Shown here in pieces: positions 1 to 6,256 of a DNA stretch of 6,256 nucleotides. Positions within the stretch are counted from its first letter, which is position 1. Each line of letters starts with the position of its first letter. Below the pieces are notes generated by a model, which had not been told where the DNA came from, made no database searches, and was given only the letters and a program-made list of their open reading frames with translations. The stretch lies in IMG/VR virus record IMGVR_UViG_3300020041_000046, positions 1-6,256 of that record; one strand, written 5' to 3'. The DNA is from a virus. Position numbers and translations under genes: made by a program.

Positions 1-121
1 CGCACTAGTCACCGTAAAATGAGCGTTAAAACAAAGCAAATGCTCAAGAAAACGCATAAGAGAATGGTTCATAATCCAATAGCATTAAGAACGTAACCAA
101 GAGCGGCAGATACGGCGCCAA
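1..121. repeat. Terminal redundancy copy A, identical to 6136-6256. It is an artefact or signature of a circular genome linearised with overlap. It carries the first 24 codons of the M15 peptidase gene (72->1, minus strand) and the 3' part of the 27-aa peptide gene.
   Basis: Base-by-base comparison by eye found 1-121 equal to 6136-6256 with no mismatch. It is a direct repeat, not inverted. The reading frame of the 5899-6207 ORF continues seamlessly across the implied junction. Confidence 0.97.
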
Positions 122-152
122 TAATAATTTTCCAAATATTATTACTTTTCAT
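69..152 (-). CDS. Hypothetical 27-aa single-pass membrane peptide (MKSNNIWKIIIGAVSAALGYVLNAIGL), a holin-like or membrane-anchor candidate
   Basis: This is the 3' part of track ORF 69..293, starting at the internal ATG at 152-150. That ATG overlaps the stop of orf64 (ATGAAAAGTAA). Its own TGA overlaps the peptidase ATG (ATGA at 72-69). It has a Lys-containing N-terminus followed by about 20 uninterrupted hydrophobic or small residues. The stretch 73-141 is covered by no other ORF. The peptide is very short, so coding status is not certain. Confidence 0.4.
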   Translation of the reverse strand: MKSNNIWKIIIGAVSAALGYVLNAIGL

Positions 153-336
153 CAGATTGAGATTTAAGTTCAACGAAATTATTTTCTTCTTTAATTGAAT
201 CCACAATAACAATAAGACCCAACGGAGAGACTCGCTCAGAATAATTTCCAAGACCATCCAGAGAATTGACAATATAAGGCGGCATAACATCACGACCAGT
301 TTGTTTTTCCTTAAGGGAAATAATAAATTTCAACAT
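142..336 (-). CDS. Hypothetical 64-aa protein, the first gene after the intergenic region
   Basis: It has an ATG start at 336-334 and a TAA stop at 144-142. Composition is balanced and charged (K/E/D/S/G/P), unlike the Leu/Ile-rich off-frame ORFs. It sits at the head of the co-oriented gene string and its stop overlaps the next start. I recognise no family motif. Confidence 0.55.
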   Translation of the reverse strand: MLKFIISLKEKQTGRDVMPPYIVNSLDGLGNYSERVSPLGLIVIVDSIKEENNFVELKSQSDEK

Positions 337-360
337 AATTATAAATTTTAAATGTTAATA

Positions 361-389
361 ATTTAATGAGTTGGTTTCTACAGGGGCAA
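361..389 (-). promoter_or_regulatory. Weak sigma70-like promoter candidate for the gene string: TTGCCC, 17 nt, TTAAAT on the minus strand
   Basis: The minus strand reads TTGCCC (389-384), then a 17-nt spacer, then TTAAAT (366-361), about 25 nt upstream of the orf64 ATG. It lies in a roughly 27% G+C tract (hand count, 337-470). Both hexamers are imperfect, and the host may not use sigma70-type consensus. Confidence 0.2.
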
Positions 390-483
390 AAGAAGACATT
401 ATTTTTGAATAAACAAAATATTTCGGAGTTTTTTTTATTCTACAGTTGGGTGTGAGTTGTGCGTTTATGGACAAGGAAAACCG

Positions 484-506
484 AATTTGAGATGATAACT
501 CAAATT
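484..506. repeat. Perfect 8-bp inverted repeat (hairpin) AATTTGAG / CTCAAATT with a 7-nt loop
   Basis: 484-491 aatttgag is the reverse complement of 499-506 ctcaaatt. The loop is atgataa (492-498). Confidence 0.6.
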
Positions 507-572
507 TCCTCCGGACACAACCAGGGGCTTCGCTTAATTAACAAGTGGATGTATACAAAGGTGTATAGGCAC

Positions 573-594
573 GGCAGGTCAGATAGAACCTGCC
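573..594. repeat. 7-bp GC-rich inverted repeat (hairpin) GGCAGGT / ACCTGCC with an 8-nt loop
   Basis: 573-579 ggcaggt pairs with 588-594 acctgcc. The loop is cagataga. TTT follows on the plus strand. Confidence 0.55.
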
Positions 595-610
595 TTTGCG
601 CACCTACGTG

Positions 611-665
611 CTAAAATACCGGAGCGGAACGCTCCTATAAGGAAGTCGCTCCGCTCCGTTTTTCG
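611..665. terminator. Intrinsic-terminator-like hairpin flanked by an A-tract and a T-tract, so possibly bidirectional. It lies downstream of VP2 in viral sense.
   Basis: The 9-bp stem is cggagcgga (620-628) paired with tccgctccg (650-658), with a 21-nt loop. On the plus strand it is preceded by aaaata and followed by ttttt. On the minus strand the same hairpin is followed by GTATTTTAG. It lies about 120 nt past the VP2 stop. Competing small hairpins exist (see findings). Confidence 0.4.
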
Positions 666-681
666 ATCAGGCCTTACGCAG

Positions 682-710
682 GCGGCGGGTGTATATCGCT
701 CAAACGCCGC
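682..710. repeat. 6-bp all-GC inverted repeat GCGGCG / CGCCGC with a 17-nt loop
   Basis: 682-687 gcggcg pairs with 705-710 cgccgc. An outer weak pairing of 669-673 with 715-719 is possible if a G-T wobble is allowed, and TTTT follows. Confidence 0.45.
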
Positions 711-779
711 GATGGGCTTTTAGTTTACCTACCGCTATAGATTATAGTATTACGAGAACCATAATCGTTACGATAGATA

Positions 780-1847
780 TTAGAAACCAGAACGAAAAGA
801 GCCAATTACATTACCAGAGCCAGAAGCAATAGAACCAAGACCACGGGATACAGATTCCCAATAATGAGTACGGCCTTGTTTACGAGCCAAATCGGCACCA
901 TATTCATATAACTTTTGCCGAGCCTTAGCGGTATTATACTGAATATGCTTACGTAATTTAACGTTAGCGGAATCATAAGACACATCACGATACTGTAACT
1001 GATAAGCAGCATTCGAAGCCTTAATCAAAGATTCAGAAGTACGCTCAGCAATTTCATTAGAAATCTTTTGACCAGAAGACTGAGCAGCAATTAGGATAGC
1101 ACGCTGAATTTCGGCCTGAATTTGTTTCTCCGTAAGAGCACCGTTTAATTGAAGGTTTACCAAGGTCTGACCTTTTATAAATAAGTCAGACTGTTGCTGT
1201 GTATCAAGATAACGGTTTAACGTACGTTGAGCATCAGAGTTCAAAAGAATCTGAGTCTCCTGAGCAGCAGATAGACGTTCAGCAAACCGAAGATTTTTCA
1301 ATTCTTGAGCCTCTGTAGACTGGTCCAAAGAAGCAGAGATACGACCAGTCTCCTTATTCCAATAACCAGACTCACCGATAGCCAAATTCTTCCAATTTGT
1401 CAGACCTTTATAATAATCAGCAATTTGAGGAGTAATAGCATCAATATTATTAGATTCTGATTGCGCCTTTTTCGCTTGAGCAAGGGAAGCCAAACTATTA
1501 AAGACATTAGAAAAATTAGGCCTAAAAGCCTGCATAGATGGAACTGGAGCGGCAGTAGCGGCAGCACCGCCAGAGGCGGGAGACTTAGAGCCAGCCATGG
1601 CAGCAGAACCATTTAAAAATGGATTCAAACCACGAGAAATCATAGCATCCGGAGAATTAAAGGCATTATTCATATTCCACATTCTCTCTTGCCAGTCACG
1701 CTGAAGCTTAGCTTGCTCGGCATTAAACGAATTTTGTTCACGCATCATACGGAGGTTAACCTTATTCTGATGATTTTGATTAATCGCGCCTATCACATTG
1801 TCGGTAAGATTACCGACAGTGGAGGCGATAGCATCGAATAGACCCAT
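780..1847 (-). CDS. VP2: Microviridae VP2-type minor capsid / DNA pilot protein (355 aa)
   Basis: It has an ATG at 1847-1845 and a TAA at 782-780. The N-terminal block ...NLRMMREQNSFNAEQAKLQRDWQERMWNMNNAFNSPDAMISRGLNPF... matches the conserved REQxxFNxxExxKxRxWxxxMxNxxxNSPxxxxxRxxxAGLNP-type signature I recall for gokusho/alpavirus VP2. Next come a Gly/Ala/Ser linker and a long Gln/Leu-rich region that is probably coiled coil. Its position after the capsid and scaffold-position genes fits. The start overlaps the upstream stop (TAATG). Confidence 0.85.
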   Translation of the reverse strand: MGLFDAIASTVGNLTDNVIGAINQNHQNKVNLRMMREQNSFNAEQAKLQRDWQERMWNMNNAFNSPDAMISRGLNPFLNGSAAMAGSKSPASGGAAATAAPVPSMQAFRPNFSNVFNSLASLAQAKKAQSESNNIDAITPQIADYYKGLTNWKNLAIGESGYWNKETGRISASLDQSTEAQELKNLRFAERLSAAQETQILLNSDAQRTLNRYLDTQQQSDLFIKGQTLVNLQLNGALTEKQIQAEIQRAILIAAQSSGQKISNEIAERTSESLIKASNAAYQLQYRDVSYDSANVKLRKHIQYNTAKARQKLYEYGADLARKQGRTHYWESVSRGLGSIASGSGNVIGSFRSGF

Positions 1848-2290
1848 TAAGCACTAGGTGCAGGGGCGGACGCATCAGGAGCGGGCTCTGCACTTGGCTC
1901 TGCCAACATAGATTCAGCGAACTTGGATAATTCAGAATATTGAGACGCCAATTCAGACAGTACGACTTGACGTTCGGACATTGTCTGACAATGGCGAGAG
2001 ATAACGCACGCAAAACGCTCTTCGTCCGTCAAACCATCCATAAAGGTAGATTGCGTAGGATGCATCTGCGCCAATATATTATTAACATTCATGTCACCAA
2101 GCAGACGACGGTACTTTTCCTGATTCAAAAGAATCTGTGTCATATCGCATTGAATCAGATCACCGTCAGGAGTCTCATCATACATAACCGAATCATAAAC
2201 AGAAGCCTGATAACACGGATTACCTTCCTTCAACTCAGGAACATACGAATTCTTTTCAAAATTCTCATTTTTATAAGCAAAACTTCTCAT
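1847..2290 (-). CDS. Hypothetical protein in the position of the internal scaffolding protein (VP3-like), 147 aa from the ATG
   Basis: The track ORF 1847..2299 begins with TTG at 2299-2297 (rc of caa). The first ATG is at 2290-2288 (MRSFAYKNENF...), which I prefer. The protein is acidic with a Pro/Ala/Ser-rich C-terminal tail (AEPSAEPAPDASAPAPSA). Its size and its location between VP1 and VP2 match the roughly 150-aa VP3 of gokushoviruses, but I see no diagnostic motif. Confidence 0.7.
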   Translation of the reverse strand: MRSFAYKNENFEKNSYVPELKEGNPCYQASVYDSVMYDETPDGDLIQCDMTQILLNQEKYRRLLGDMNVNNILAQMHPTQSTFMDGLTDEERFACVISRHCQTMSERQVVLSELASQYSELSKFAESMLAEPSAEPAPDASAPAPSA

Positions 2291-2301
2291 AACAAACAAA
2301 T

Positions 2302-4044
2302 TTAATAAGGCAAACCATTCCTATCCAAATTCTGAACAGCATAAACTTGAAAATTAACATTACATAACAACTGGTCGTAAGCAACGGAACAATTCGGACC
2401 TGAAACCTGAGGCTCAAAAATAGAGTTCAATTGCTGAGGACGAACTTTCATTGACTGATAAGACCAAGTACCGGAAGAGGTAAGAACGTCCCAGCCATCA
2501 ATAGGAGCAGCCCAAGACTGATACGCCATACCAGAACGGAACGCAGCATGGACAGTATCAATATTAGTCTTCCATTGCCAATACCGAAGATTATAACCAA
2601 GAGCACCAGAAACCTTACGACCAGGATTATTTTGAAGATTCAGACCAAGGACAGGCTGCATACCCAACTGGTCGAACGCAGGTTGGGGGAAGTCAGAAAC
2701 AACCGTAACAGTCAACTGCGGATTCTGGCCGGTCAGATTCCAATCAACCATAGGAACAGCATGATATACACACATAATAACTTGATGTTCAGCGCCACAA
2801 TCATAAGTCAACGTATGACCAGACTGAGAACTTACGCCTTTACCAGCGATTACGGCTTGAGAGTTAGCAGAGTCCAGATTGGTATTCAAGACTTCATTAA
2901 TATTGATCACGTTGGACCAACCACCAATATAATGAGCGTGATTACCCATGTATTCAGGAGCTTTAACGCCAAACTGGGCTGCCATTTGGTCTGAATAGTC
3001 CTTGCTAGAGAATTGAACTACCTCTTTCCAACGCTGGAGATATTCCGTCGCACGGATTGAAAGGGCGGAAAGGTCAGAGTTAATATTCACAAACCGAGAA
3101 GAAGAACCAGCATTAGACGCATAAGAAACAATAGAAGTTGAACCAGAAGGATTGACTAACGAAGAGTTAGAATCCGATGCAGCAGAAGAAACAACAGCCA
3201 TTGCACGATTAGACGGAGCAGAAGGAAGGAAAGTAGACGGTAGCACAGCAACCGAGCCATACTGGCTATTCGGAAGCATACCCATAAAGTAATCTTTCGG
3301 ATAATTAGCATAACGGAGCTGAAGCATCTCAGGGGCGAGGGGCAATTGAGACTTTCCGTCCCAATAATCTACATTATACGCATAAGCCAGATGCTTTTCC
3401 CATTGAGAGTCAGAGAAGAAATCATAATAAATCTTCTGATAAGCCAACAGCGGAAGAAGATTGACAGTCTGACTAGCAGAATAAACCAAAGGATTGAGAG
3501 CATCCTCAAGAGATTGAATTCCCAGATAGGCTTCGGTAATAGCGGCTTTCGCAGTGTTTGAAGGCGCAAGGAAAGAACCATATCCAAGCATGTCTAATAC
3601 CTTAGAAGCGCCATAGAGGTAAGGAAGACCGGCATCGTCAAAGACATCCTTACCATTAATCGCCTGAAGACTCAATGACAACAAGTTCAACGTCGTGTTC
3701 GGTACAGAAGTCAACATCTCGGTGTTAGAGGTATTACTAGCAGCAGAAGTCATATAATCCTGCATTTGAGTAAACGCTTGCGGCAGAGCTCGAGAAATCA
3801 AGCGTAACGGCACAGCGTAAAAGTCGTAGTATTCCTTAATACGGGTATATGCGGCCGTATTAACGGGAACAGTACGGGTAAACCAATCAGAAGAAATACG
3901 ATACTTGTTACCAGGGATAGCAATCTGCCAATAACAAGGAAGGATCTCTCCAACTTTCGCCGTAAACAATTTTTTACTAGACAAGTCAAAGGAGGAGCGA
4001 TGAACGGCAATTTTCGCTCGGTCTAGCGGATTAAAATCACTCAT
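2302..4044 (-). CDS. VP1: Microviridae major capsid protein (F/VP1 family), 580 aa
   Basis: It has an ATG at 4044-4042 and a TAA at 2304-2302. The N-terminus ...HRSSFDLSSKKLFTAKVGEILPCYW...PGNKY...RTVPVNTAAYTRIKEYYDFYAVPLRLI is the hallmark start of Phage_F-type capsid proteins (FDLS, then G-x-L-P, then P-G, then F-F/Y-V-P-x-R-L). It is one of the two largest ORFs in the genome, and its size fits non-phiX microvirus VP1. Confidence 0.95.
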   Translation of the reverse strand: MSDFNPLDRAKIAVHRSSFDLSSKKLFTAKVGEILPCYWQIAIPGNKYRISSDWFTRTVPVNTAAYTRIKEYYDFYAVPLRLISRALPQAFTQMQDYMTSAASNTSNTEMLTSVPNTTLNLLSLSLQAINGKDVFDDAGLPYLYGASKVLDMLGYGSFLAPSNTAKAAITEAYLGIQSLEDALNPLVYSASQTVNLLPLLAYQKIYYDFFSDSQWEKHLAYAYNVDYWDGKSQLPLAPEMLQLRYANYPKDYFMGMLPNSQYGSVAVLPSTFLPSAPSNRAMAVVSSAASDSNSSLVNPSGSTSIVSYASNAGSSSRFVNINSDLSALSIRATEYLQRWKEVVQFSSKDYSDQMAAQFGVKAPEYMGNHAHYIGGWSNVININEVLNTNLDSANSQAVIAGKGVSSQSGHTLTYDCGAEHQVIMCVYHAVPMVDWNLTGQNPQLTVTVVSDFPQPAFDQLGMQPVLGLNLQNNPGRKVSGALGYNLRYWQWKTNIDTVHAAFRSGMAYQSWAAPIDGWDVLTSSGTWSYQSMKVRPQQLNSIFEPQVSGPNCSVAYDQLLCNVNFQVYAVQNLDRNGLPY

Positions 4045-4060
4045 AAATAATTAATATGAA

Positions 4061-5896
4061 TTAGACCATACGGTTAAATATATTATTCGCATCATTCAGT
4101 TTCTTATGTTTAATCATATCACGGCAGTATTTCGATGAACGGTTATCCAAACACCTTTGTAAGTCGTCGCACAAATCGTTGTAATTTGCAGGTTGCGAGG
4201 CTTTAAAGGATGGTCCGACCAGACGAGAAAGAGCTGGGGAAAGTAATAATTTTCGGGAGTCATCAAAATGTAAGACGAGCGGCTTGATTCCTGCCATTCT
4301 GTCTCGAATAGTGTACGTGGAAAATGTTCCATCTTCCTCCTCCTTAACGGTCGACACTTCACATCCTGAGGCCGGTAGATAAAAATATCGCAATAAAGGG
4401 AATTCACATGTTTCTTGAATTCGCAACGAATCACACATTCGTACATAGTCCGCTTTCTTTTCATATTCTATTCCTGTTTTAATAATATAATTAATACGAG
4501 CGGAAAAAGAATCAAAATTGCCACCGATGGGAGGCAAATGCCAATTCCTAAGGAACCTACTGACATAAAGGAATAGCCGATATAATTTATTAATATAAGA
4601 TTCAATATCGACATCAGAAGAACTGCTACAGAGCCTAGTAAGGCACCGAGCGTTATGCAATATAATTTCATCTTCATCGGTCAGGTGATGATTCAATGTA
4701 AGATACTGATAATAAGCACGAACAATAGAAAGGATAGAATCGGAATTATAATCTATAATACCGAACCTTGCAATTCTTTTTGGCGAATCCGCAACAGCTC
4801 GAATAATTCTAGCAATCGCAACAGCATCGTCAAAGCGAGCACTTGAGAATCGGGGAAGTAATGTACGGATATACGACATGGGGGGAGTTGATTTAACACT
4901 AATCCCGTTGAAGTTATAGACTCGTCCATTAATGACAGAATCGATTTTTCGTTCAACCGCATGATAGACGTCTTCACCTTCCTCAAAAACCTCGCCTTTC
5001 TCAAAAAATCCAAGAGACGCTCTTTGTCGGGGTTTAAACGAGCGGCACGATCGATATAACAAGGGAGCAGAACTAAGGCTGTTAACGTAACTCGCAACGT
5101 ATGATGAAGCTCCACCACGGGCAATCTGGAAATCTGAACGACCGAGTTTCCAACTCTTATCATGACACTGTCGTAATACTTCTGAGACTTCTTTCGAGTT
5201 CGTGAATAATAAGATATGATAATGCGGGCGGAAATGGAATGGTCCGTATTCACCCACAGCGTAGAAGTGTAACGTTTCATAAGAACCTAAAACTTGATAT
5301 AAATATTTACGTAAGCGTTTAATATAGTTCTGAACATCAACATAATTCAGAAAGGGTATAAGGTTATCAACACCGTATTTTTCAGCAACGGGATATACTG
5401 AGTTGTCAACGGCCTGCGTTTTACGGATAAAACTACGAATAGCATCCATACTAAGAAACCAATTATCCTTAACAGGAACATATTCCTTGATTTCACGGTC
5501 AAACGGCACCGTGCCTTGAACTTGCGTGAAGAATACATGACGTAAAAGGGAAGAATCCTCAGGTTGATAGTCGGAAACAGGTATATAAGAGTGGCGTTCA
5601 TAACCAAAAACTTTATCCCCTGAAATACTTAAAGCATCTTCATACTCACTATGCAGAACCTCACAATTCATCAAAGGAATATGCTCATTATCATAAGTAA
5701 GCGTTACAAAATAAGAATACTTGAAAGCACTTCCGGCGGTCTTCACACGCATGGACGCTTTTTGAGCACGCTTATAAATACAGTAATCACATTGTCCGCA
5801 ATCTACAGCAATGCGCTGACCTGTGTAACGATTAGTTATAAAAGAGCGATGCTGGCAATGATCAGCAGCTTTAAGTAAATCAGGAGTAAATTTCAT
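4061..5896 (-). CDS. VP4: Rolling-circle replication initiator (HUH endonuclease, Microviridae VP4 / gene A family), 611 aa
   Basis: It has an ATG at 5896-5894 and a TAA at 4063-4061. Motif 1 is FVTLTY (aa 63-68, nt 5693-5710). The HUH motif is HYHILLF (aa 225-231, nt 5204-5224). The two-tyrosine motif is YVASYVNS (aa 266-273, nt 5078-5101), compared with phiX174 A protein YVAKYVNK. The N-terminal Cys/His cluster is C14-x-H16...C33-x2-C36-x2-C39. Confidence 0.93.
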   Translation of the reverse strand: MKFTPDLLKAADHCQHRSFITNRYTGQRIAVDCGQCDYCIYKRAQKASMRVKTAGSAFKYSYFVTLTYDNEHIPLMNCEVLHSEYEDALSISGDKVFGYERHSYIPVSDYQPEDSSLLRHVFFTQVQGTVPFDREIKEYVPVKDNWFLSMDAIRSFIRKTQAVDNSVYPVAEKYGVDNLIPFLNYVDVQNYIKRLRKYLYQVLGSYETLHFYAVGEYGPFHFRPHYHILLFTNSKEVSEVLRQCHDKSWKLGRSDFQIARGGASSYVASYVNSLSSAPLLYRSCRSFKPRQRASLGFFEKGEVFEEGEDVYHAVERKIDSVINGRVYNFNGISVKSTPPMSYIRTLLPRFSSARFDDAVAIARIIRAVADSPKRIARFGIIDYNSDSILSIVRAYYQYLTLNHHLTDEDEIILHNARCLTRLCSSSSDVDIESYINKLYRLFLYVSRFLRNWHLPPIGGNFDSFSARINYIIKTGIEYEKKADYVRMCDSLRIQETCEFPLLRYFYLPASGCEVSTVKEEEDGTFSTYTIRDRMAGIKPLVLHFDDSRKLLLSPALSRLVGPSFKASQPANYNDLCDDLQRCLDNRSSKYCRDMIKHKKLNDANNIFNRMV

Positions 5897-5898
5897 AA

Positions 5899-6207
5899 TT
5901 ATTTTCTTTTATCAATCACTTGGCGACGATTACGTGAACCAAATGAAACATGAATAAAATTAGTATAAATAATAAGTTGATCAAAAGGAGAAATATGATC
6001 AGAATAACCATGAATCATCTCAAGCAAATTATTAAAACTGGTAGACCCGTAAGGCTTGATATCAATAGCTTCGCCTATTAAATGTTGAGAATTAGGGACG
6101 CCATTACAAGCCTTATTCTGTTTAGGAGTACGCTTCGCACTAGTCACCGTAAAATGAGCGTTAAAACAAAGCAAATGCTCAAGAAAACGCATAAGAGAAT
6201 GGTTCAT
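5899..6207 (-). CDS. Minimal zinc D,D- or L,D-peptidase of the M15 (Peptidase_M15_3/M15A-like) cell-wall hydrolase family, 102 aa
   Basis: It has an ATG at 6207-6205, with an in-frame stop five codons upstream when read through the circular junction. The TAA at 5901-5899 lies 2 nt before the VP4 ATG. The sequence ...FTVTSAKRTPKQNKACNGVPNSQHLIGEAIDI... (nt 6058-6090 cover SQHLIGEAIDI) matches the family signature [ST]SGYR-x5-N-x3-GG-x3-S-x-H-x2-G-x-A-x-D-[IF]. The distal ...YTNFIHVSFG supplies the third ligand His (aa 86, nt 5950-5952). There is no signal peptide or TM segment. Confidence 0.85.
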   Translation of the reverse strand: MNHSLMRFLEHLLCFNAHFTVTSAKRTPKQNKACNGVPNSQHLIGEAIDIKPYGSTSFNNLLEMIHGYSDHISPFDQLIIYTNFIHVSFGSRNRRQVIDKRK

Positions 6208-6256
6208 AATCCAATAGCATTAAGAACGTAACCAAGAGCGGCAGATACGGCGCCAA
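6136..6256. repeat. Terminal redundancy copy B, identical to 1-121
   Basis: Same comparison as for copy A. It contains the peptidase 5' end (6136-6207) and a truncated copy of the 27-aa peptide gene (6204-6256). Confidence 0.97.

Follow-up and report, generated by a model that had tools for sequence, protein, structure and literature searches.

A conserved membrane-peptide gene between orf64 and the peptidase gene in a clade of gut microviruses, and its possible role in host lysis

The 27-codon gene and its conservation

The window, by which we mean the whole 6,256-nucleotide (nt) stretch of DNA analysed here (IMG/VR record IMGVR_UViG_3300020041_000046, positions 1 to 6,256), is a circular microvirus genome of 6135 nt that was assembled with a terminal redundancy of 121 nt (positions 1-121, a feature without strand, are identical to 6136-6256). 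Our subject is a 27-amino acid (aa) hydrophobic peptide encoded on the minus strand at 152-69 (ATG at 152-150, TGA at 71-69; product MKSNNIWKIIIGAVSAALGYVLNAIGL). The open reading frame (ORF) lies between orf64 (336-142, minus strand, 64 aa) and a Peptidase_M15_3 gene (6207-5899, minus strand, 102 aa) that encodes a LAS-type metallopeptidase and putative endolysin; the peptidase start is at position 72, which through the terminal repeat is the same base as position 6207. On inspection, the stop codon of orf64 and the start codon of the peptide overlap in ATGAAAAGTAA (152-142, minus strand), and the stop codon of the peptide and the start codon of the peptidase overlap in ATGA (72-69, equivalent to 6204-6207, minus strand). 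A preliminary description of this DNA, which proposed a miniature holin-endolysin cassette at this place, gave the same junctions and the same 27-aa product, and all of them match the sequence.

The 152-69 frame is a genuine, unannotated gene of a clade of very abundant gut microviruses. It was intact in all close relatives examined, about 190 contigs. The ORF was found in 66 of 66 relatives gathered via the peptidase from GenBank phages and IMG/VR, and in 78 of 78 orf64-selected relatives that had enough downstream sequence, a choice independent of the peptide. It was also intact in all 118 usable contigs (of 119) recovered by a motif scan of IMG/VR that was independent of the peptidase. Among the 66 peptidase-selected relatives the start codon was ATG in 65 and GTG in one, and the overlap between orf64 and the peptide was mostly 11 nt long (53 relatives), with 14 nt in 10 others and 8 nt in 2. 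The tail residues of orf64 vary (D/N/H/Y, then E/G), always in the form xAT-Gxx, and the peptide ATG is kept; its retention despite the changing C-terminal residues of orf64 indicates that the start codon itself is under selection. The peptide/peptidase junction was ATGA in 64 of these 66 relatives and GTGA in the other two, and it was ATGA in 107 of the 118 motif-scan relatives.

Over the 22 codons that do not overlap other genes, pooled Nei-Gojobori counts gave a synonymous difference per site (pS) of 0.42-0.43 and a non-synonymous difference per site (pN) of 0.045-0.046, a ratio of 0.11, compared with pN/pS values of 1.0-1.2 and 6.3-7.6 in the two alternative frames of these bases; these and the other selection statistics are pooled pairwise counts made without a tree. 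Conservation together with this frame-specific pN/pS ruled out a chance ORF.

The peptide was annotated in none of the 15 GenBank records inspected, and ORFs under the gene-finder cut-off of about 30 codons are systematically missed. We also considered the 124-aa, N-terminally extended 'peptidase' of Dulem viruses 238, 226 and 243 (L006, L007 and L009; PP511323, PP511396 and PP511322). This coding sequence, labelled a peptidase or a hypothetical protein, begins at an ATG further upstream in the frame of the peptidase. The extended form was rejected: the extension is a Cys/Trp-rich, non-conserved alternative frame of the peptide ORF, and the start of the 124-aa coding sequence in these three records is probably a mis-annotation. 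The 27-aa product matched no Pfam or PHROG family. We consider it very probable that the short form is translated and functional.

The product had been described as a single transmembrane (TM) helix with a short basic N-terminus, and hydropathy agrees with this: the 19-residue Kyte-Doolittle (KD) maximum is 2.01, for residues 9-27, and lysines are found at positions 2 and 8. Under the positive-inside rule, K2 and K8 suggest an N-in orientation. Glycine and alanine make up 7 of the 19 helix residues, and G12, S15, A16, G19, N23 and G26 lie on one face of the helix, within a 100-degree arc of the helical wheel. Such a stripe of small and polar residues would suit tight self-association or the binding of another membrane protein. 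The core IGAVSAALGY is almost invariant while the neighbouring genes diverge (peptidase pN 0.15).

A comparable arrangement is present in a sister clade that comprises Dulem viruses 236 and 257, bajarodmic viruses 410 and 1134 and 33 IMG/VR contigs, and whose peptidase is about 50% identical to that of the window. There the layout matches and the sequences differ: a 57-aa gene ending ...SDEK has a stop codon that overlaps the ATG of a 29-aa ORF, MKSETKSKIWSAIIAAAVSLLTSIAQIFS, and a spacer of 3-24 nt separates this ORF from the peptidase gene. The 29-aa ORF is intact in 36 of 37 genomes, with a pN/pS of 0.096. Its equivalence to the window peptide rests on position and architecture, as the sequence similarity between the two is not significant. 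The only genome seen with a disrupted peptide ORF is L319 (IMGVR_UViG_3300045988_021117), in which codon 4 is a stop and 8 nt are duplicated; a defective genome and an assembly error are both possible explanations. The preliminary description had suggested looking among peptidase-carrying relatives for a short hydrophobic ORF conserved under purifying selection and joined to the peptidase by the same ATGA. Conservation and selection were both found, and the ATGA junction proved to be conserved within the clade of the window and replaced by the spacer in the sister clade.

In the oral D_HF4_111 clade, which encodes a full-length peptidase of 144 aa (38% identical), a stand-alone ORF of 28-29 aa, MKK(Q/N)NVWKLVLQIAVSALTALATALGV.., was present in 7 of 7 loci. 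Its position is directly downstream of VP2, with about 500 nt between it and the peptidase gene, and a stop codon is found four codons upstream of its ATG. When a hidden Markov model was built from the window-clade peptides only, the D_HF4_111 peptide was its best match outside that clade (E=0.0046 among 2647 ORFs). The same clade contains a second conserved TM ORF of 38-40 aa, starting MSYKK... or MFDFNLKK... (L076, 3806-3928; also L083, L085-L087 and L090), which directly follows the 28-29-aa ORF, so that two unannotated membrane micro-ORFs stand in tandem upstream of the peptidase. Small hydrophobic ORFs, unrelated to those above, also lie near the peptidase gene in more distant microviruses that carry it; little weight was given to these, because T-rich genomes yield such ORFs easily.

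A longer frame overprinted on orf64

The frame of the peptide is open for 46 further codons upstream, where it runs inside orf64 as the +1 frame of that gene and reaches an ATG at 290-288. This candidate long form (290-69, minus strand, 73 aa) covers orf64 codons 16-64 and consists of MLCRLILSILWMVLEIILSESLRWVLLLLWIQLKKKIISLNLNLNL followed by the 27-aa peptide. The two forms share the TM helix end: both terminate in ...NAIGL, within the hydrophobic helix and without a charged C-terminal tail. Of the peptides expected from tryptic digestion, IISLNLNLNLMK, across Met47, would come from the 73-aa form only.

The long frame was open in 66 of 66 peptidase-selected relatives and in 116 of the 118 motif-scan relatives. 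Because third codon positions are T-rich, +1 frames are open and hydrophobic by default, and the long frame was therefore tested specifically. First, the probability that it is open, given the orf64 protein and the codon usage of the genome, ranged from 0.002 to 0.02 across eight lineages and was 0.19 in mar56. Second, the codon that would create a +1 stop was used at 0 of 832 stop-prone synonymous sites in orf64, compared with 248 of 766 in the peptidase gene. Third, the per-codon synonymous diversity of orf64 drops from about codon 16, which is the site of the +1 ATG; its median was 0.18 for codons 17-60 and 0.53 for the controls (Mann-Whitney p=3e-6, a p-value that overstates the independence of the counts).

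The locus also shows clean signatures of an overprinted frame at the level of single codons. Asp16 of orf64 is encoded by GAT, which supplies the +1 ATG, in 127 of 129 unique sequences, compared with a genome-wide GAT:GAC ratio of 65:32. Pro20 is CCT in 129/129, this codon accounting for 37 of the 75 proline codons genome-wide. Residue 19 varies between P, S, A and T, and its codon is nevertheless NCG in 125 of 129 sequences, a fixation that preserves Arg4 (CGC) of the +1 product. In the sister clade, used as a control, the upstream frame has breaks at many positions, and just 15 of 36 genomes keep it open over 46 codons or more.

Over 150 metagenome contigs carry the 73-aa ORF as a gene-finder prediction, each time labelled a hypothetical protein. 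A large protein search with it returned uncharacterised proteins only, on contigs of at most about 10.7 kb and mostly on contigs of about 6 kb or shorter fragments; two of the matches bear Microviridae names. No Pfam or PHROG homology was detected for the 73-aa ORF, and its AlphaFold2 (AF2) model, one long helix, was uninformative on topology.

Besides the default openness of +1 frames, two observations count against a functional long form. In three members of the clade the frame is interrupted, by a stop without a later ATG in L159 and by a stop followed by an ATG in L164 and L045, and the long form is not conserved in the sister clade. Since the frame is both open and constrained over 46 more codons, a 73-aa product is plausible beside the 27-aa form, and we regard its translation and function in the window clade as probable, with less confidence than for the short form. 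This affects the earlier statement that the product is a bare helix far smaller than canonical holins. The one-TM holin-like proteins listed in PMC9671378 have 79-218 aa, and the holin size range used here for comparison was about 60-220 aa. The statement is accurate for the 27-aa form, which is far below this range, and would not apply to the 73-aa candidate, which has the size of a class II holin.

The peptide, the peptidase and host lysis

The gene downstream of the peptide had been taken to encode a signal-less peptidoglycan hydrolase, and the sequence agrees with both parts of this claim. The product matches the M15 profile PF08291 (E=1.8e-9; 38.1 bits, curated cut-off 23.2) and PHROG endolysin (E=1e-15), and its translation contains the zinc-ligand motifs SQHLIGEAID (SxHxxGxAxD) and, further on, the histidine of IHV. 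Its N-terminus is not hydrophobic (maximum KD17 0.91), and the protein has neither a signal sequence nor a TM segment. A sequence search of the PDB with the peptidase gave no match. The protein belongs to the M15_3 family of horizontally mobile putative endolysins known as an accessory of Microviridae (PMC3394797, PMC9239249), from which it differs by a shortened N-terminus: the peptidase has 101-106 aa in the window and sister clades (102 aa in the window) compared with 138-158 aa in other microviruses (L075-L081). It aligns to the C-terminal two thirds of the longer M15 peptidases and to Pfam positions 32-108 of 108 and is, judged from these alignments, an N-terminally trimmed version of the domain.

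A role of the Microviridae M15 peptidase in lysis has already been proposed, with no mention of a membrane partner (PMC3394797, PMC9239249, PMC11499846). An adjacent 'unknown ORF' was noted in 5 of 11 cases by Roux et al. (2012; PMC3394797), and overprinted genes were explicitly omitted by Kirchberger et al. (2022; PMC9239249). In the literature searched, neither a TM partner for the microvirus peptidase nor a holin of Microviridae is described. In microviruses outside the phiX174 group, the proposed endolysin has no route across the membrane. The conserved membrane-peptide gene described here is a concrete, synthesisable candidate for the missing step, in a clade that is very abundant in mammalian gut samples.

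The peptidase gene lies directly downstream of the peptide in 72 of 75 orf64-selected relatives (96%) and in 108 of the 118 motif-scan relatives. In nine motif-scan contigs (IMG/VR contigs L098, L132, L138, L149, L157, L160, L174, L183 and L191), orf64 and the peptide are followed, after about 55 nt, by Rep, and the peptidase is found nowhere in the contig; three of the nine have terminal repeats and are complete circles. The peptide in these contigs has a pS of 0.44, a pN of 0.053 and a pN/pS of 0.12. Rep distances scatter them among genomes that have the peptidase, which indicates that the presence of the peptidase is polymorphic in the population; the pattern suggests module exchange or repeated loss. 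Position 23 of the peptide is Ser instead of Asn in eight of the nine and in none of the 108 peptidase-bearing genomes, and the same eight peptides end in ...IGV rather than ...IGL; one metagenome protein pairs S23 with a GL end.

The reverse situation occurs in Microvirus mar63, where the upstream 58-aa gene is coupled straight to the peptidase gene and no TM peptide is present. These natural peptidase-less and peptide-less variants suggest two separable modules, and a strict holin-endolysin pair is too narrow a description of them. The holin-endolysin logic of the preliminary description is therefore supported in that a real TM gene lies directly upstream of a signal-less M15 peptidase gene, and must be relaxed in that either gene can occur without the other. 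mar63 (L074, 4635-4757) contains a 40-aa basic amphipathic ORF, MKRFLYELKRLLPLLKQVYPLIKSLLSACVRYLKNRRKNE, which uses a different frame of its orf58 and whose stop codon ends at 4757, 8 nt beyond the peptidase ATG (4750); this ORF may be due to chance or may encode a different partner.

orf64 accompanies the peptide without exception in the clade (78/78). It is the first gene past the intergenic region, and its product is small, acidic and predicted to be soluble, with a pN/pS of 0.30. It has 2567 homologous protein clusters (90% identity), all on microvirus-sized contigs. The AF2 model (predicted local distance difference test score, pLDDT, 75) shows three beta strands and a disordered acidic tail; Foldseek gave no informative match to it in PDB or BFVD, and no Pfam or PHROG family was matched. 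There was no detectable homology between orf64 and the positionally equivalent orf57 and orf58 of the sister clades. A parallel could be drawn with mycobacteriophage Ms6, in which a small chaperone-like protein, Gp1, aids the export of LysA and has its gene immediately before that of LysA (PMC9671378). orf64 is alike in being a small acidic soluble protein encoded upstream of the hydrolase at the head of the cassette, and it differs in being retained in peptidase-less genomes; it is therefore not a dedicated peptidase chaperone.

We tentatively favour, with a confidence that stays somewhat below even, the reading that the peptide is a membrane-acting component of host lysis and that the peptidase is its usual but dispensable partner. 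A lysis role is the most economical one because a selected TM gene lies directly upstream of a signal-less M15 peptidase gene and TM ORFs are found near the peptidase elsewhere. The peptide is in addition the only obvious membrane-active product, and there is no other lysis candidate in these phages. Its architecture, moreover, is that of the small TM lysis proteins known from other tiny phages (PMC7693330, PMC12506998).

The topology, the translation of both forms and the lysis role that we infer would combine as follows. The 27-aa form (from the ATG at 152) and the 73-aa form (from the ATG at 290) would probably both be made, the short form being the conserved core, which stands alone in two other peptidase-carrying clades. 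The peptide would span the membrane once, with a basic N-terminus that is presumably cytoplasmic and a helix of about 20 residues reaching the C-terminus. Its action late in infection would be either to damage or depolarise the cytoplasmic membrane or to stop wall synthesis at a membrane step. The cytoplasmic M15 peptidase, encoded immediately downstream on the same message, would use the lesion to reach and cut the peptidoglycan, thereby speeding lysis. As the peptide persists without the peptidase, it must have an activity of its own; it could lesion the membrane generally, in the manner of a holin or of L, or inhibit wall synthesis at a membrane step, in the manner of E or LysM. Holins and single-gene-lysis proteins are the known proteins that it would most resemble in its action, and the lack of a charged C-terminal tail and of homology to single-gene-lysis proteins led us to file it in neither family.

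Several points weigh against a lysis role with a dispensable peptidase. The 27-aa helix is far below the size of any characterised holin and has no charged tail; the peptide-only genomes encode no recognisable wall hydrolase, so that lysis has to be explained otherwise in them; in mar63 the peptidase occurs with no TM peptide; and the perfect co-occurrence with orf64 could indicate a role outside lysis. Furthermore, 178 of 293 TM ORF candidates from small phages were not lytic when tested (PMC7693330).

Alternatively, the peptide might be an autonomous single-gene-lysis protein ('protein antibiotic'), whose helix blocks a conserved membrane enzyme of peptidoglycan precursor synthesis or export and whose action is only accelerated by the peptidase. 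The models for such a mode of action are phiX174 E, which blocks MraY, and LysM of phage M, which blocks MurJ. Like E, LysM and the levivirus L protein, the window product is a tiny TM protein of a phage of about 6 kb, and it is kept where no hydrolase is encoded. Its near-invariant IGAVSAALGY core would fit a specific protein-protein interface, although homo-oligomer packing explains this conservation equally well. Part of its frame is overprinted on another gene, in the +1 frame, in the way that E lies within D; such embedding is often seen for the TM lysis proteins of small phages, which can be as short as about 25-37 codons (PMC7693330). With its single TM helix it is also near the size of LysM (37 aa; PMC12506998). 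However, no similarity to the E, L or LysM families was found in Pfam or PHROG, and about 96% of the relatives couple the peptide to a wall hydrolase, which classical single-gene-lysis phages neither carry nor need. On balance we hold this explanation to be unlikely.

A second alternative takes the constant association with orf64 as its starting point. The peptide would be a non-lysis membrane protein that works with orf64, in the anchoring of replication or assembly, in host takeover or in superinfection exclusion, and its place before the peptidase would be incidental. The K protein of phiX174 is a precedent, being a small non-essential membrane protein. The two ORFs overlap and co-occur in 100% of the orf64-selected genomes, the peptide is independent of the peptidase, and most small-phage TM ORFs are not lytic (PMC7693330). 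Nevertheless, the D_HF4_111 peptide has no adjacent orf64-like gene, and the sister clade has retained its peptide next to an orf57 without detectable homology to orf64. A role outside lysis would also leave the peptidase-less genomes without a lysis candidate, the peptide being their sole obvious membrane-active product. These observations make a non-lysis role quite unlikely.

The strict form of the holin-endolysin proposal states that the 27-aa helix oligomerises into holes solely to release the M15 peptidase, the two forming an obligate unit. Adjacency with an ATGA overlap in 107 of 118 relatives, the absence of a signal sequence from the peptidase and the occurrence of small TM ORFs near the peptidase in several clades are as expected from such a unit. 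The comparison with the holins and pinholins of phage 21 (S21-68) and lambda (S105/S107) is favourable in the same respects: a small membrane protein is encoded beside a cytoplasmic muralytic enzyme, and one face of its helix is lined with small or polar residues, as in helices that pack homotypically. The 73-aa candidate would match the class II size, and the nested starts recall the dual starts of holin and antiholin, which however are 2-3 codons apart, compared with 46 codons in the window. The conserved core is a single helix of 27 residues, far under the size of known holins; it has no similarity to Pfam or PHROG holin families and lacks the short, highly charged hydrophilic C-terminal domain of canonical holins (PMC9671378). 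In addition, the peptide is retained by purifying selection in nine relatives that have no endolysin, mar63 has a peptidase without the peptide, and in the D_HF4_111 clade the peptide is about 500 nt away from the peptidase, beside a second TM ORF. Tight or overlapping junctions are moreover the rule throughout this genome (the peptidase and Rep genes are 2 nt apart, and orf150 and VP2 meet in TAATG), so the ATGA overlap by itself is weak evidence of a functional link. We consequently doubt that the two genes form an obligate unit.

The remaining proposal, a detached or conditional signal-anchor joined to the peptidase by a -1 frameshift in the window clade or by stop readthrough in the sister clade, as in signal-anchor-release (SAR) endolysins, is very improbable: the helix is Gly/Ala-rich like SAR domains (PMC9671378) and most sister-clade genomes have peptide and peptidase in one frame, one stop and one codon apart, but the window helix is encoded by an ORF of its own in another frame than the peptidase, no relative has an in-frame fusion and all retain the stop, inspection of GGATTATGA revealed no recognisable slippery site, peptidase-less genomes keep the peptide, and such a fusion was rejected on the clade-dependent frame relation and the variable sister-clade spacer, which places the two genes out of frame in some genomes (e.g. 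L308).

Two bolder readings can be formulated, and the chance that either applies is small. Either the nested 73-aa and 27-aa proteins would constitute a holin/antiholin-like lysis timer, or the 27-aa helix alone would be the smallest known autonomous lysis protein, hitting a conserved membrane step of wall synthesis in Bacteroidales, the order to which the host probably belongs (see below). A nested timer would be the first such system in a single-stranded DNA phage, caught midway in growth by overprinting; a peptide that targets a Bacteroidales wall-synthesis enzyme would point the way to a new target for a 'protein antibiotic'.

Genome layout, host and a further overprinted frame

All genes of the window are on the minus strand, in a single tight array. 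The peptidase gene is followed by Rep/VP4 (5896-4061, minus strand), VP1 (4044-2302, minus strand), orf150 (2299-1847, minus strand) and VP2 (1847-780, minus strand). Between VP2 and orf64 there is a non-coding region of about 440 nt (337-779), which contains a terminator-like element, a GC-rich hairpin followed by a T-run (621-635, minus strand), and further inverted repeats. This region is probably the transcript end together with the origin or a promoter region. A scan for sigma-70 promoters found no excess of matches over shuffled sequence, which would be expected for a host from the Bacteroidales.

A prophage search for the host returned no close relative. Distant prophages only, with about 30% VP1 identity, were found in Prevotella, Paraprevotella, Xylanibacter and other Bacteroidales genomes, and they carry neither the peptide nor the peptidase gene. 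As these distant VP1 relatives are prophages of Bacteroidales, the host is probably a Gram-negative Bacteroidales species.

The interior of Rep/VP4 contains a 175-aa ORF (4753-5280, minus strand) in the +1 frame of Rep, MKRYTSTLWVNTDHSISARIIISYY..., and the longest open stretch of this frame was 170-190 codons in 108 of 108 related Rep genes. Given the Rep protein and codon usage, the probability that it is open was 0.027, and its product is not merely hydrophobic. Three more +1 ORFs in Rep, of 69, 86 and 116 aa, were unremarkable (probabilities of 0.11-0.15). The 175-aa ORF may thus be a further overprinted gene, in a position that recalls phiX174, where B and K are located within A.

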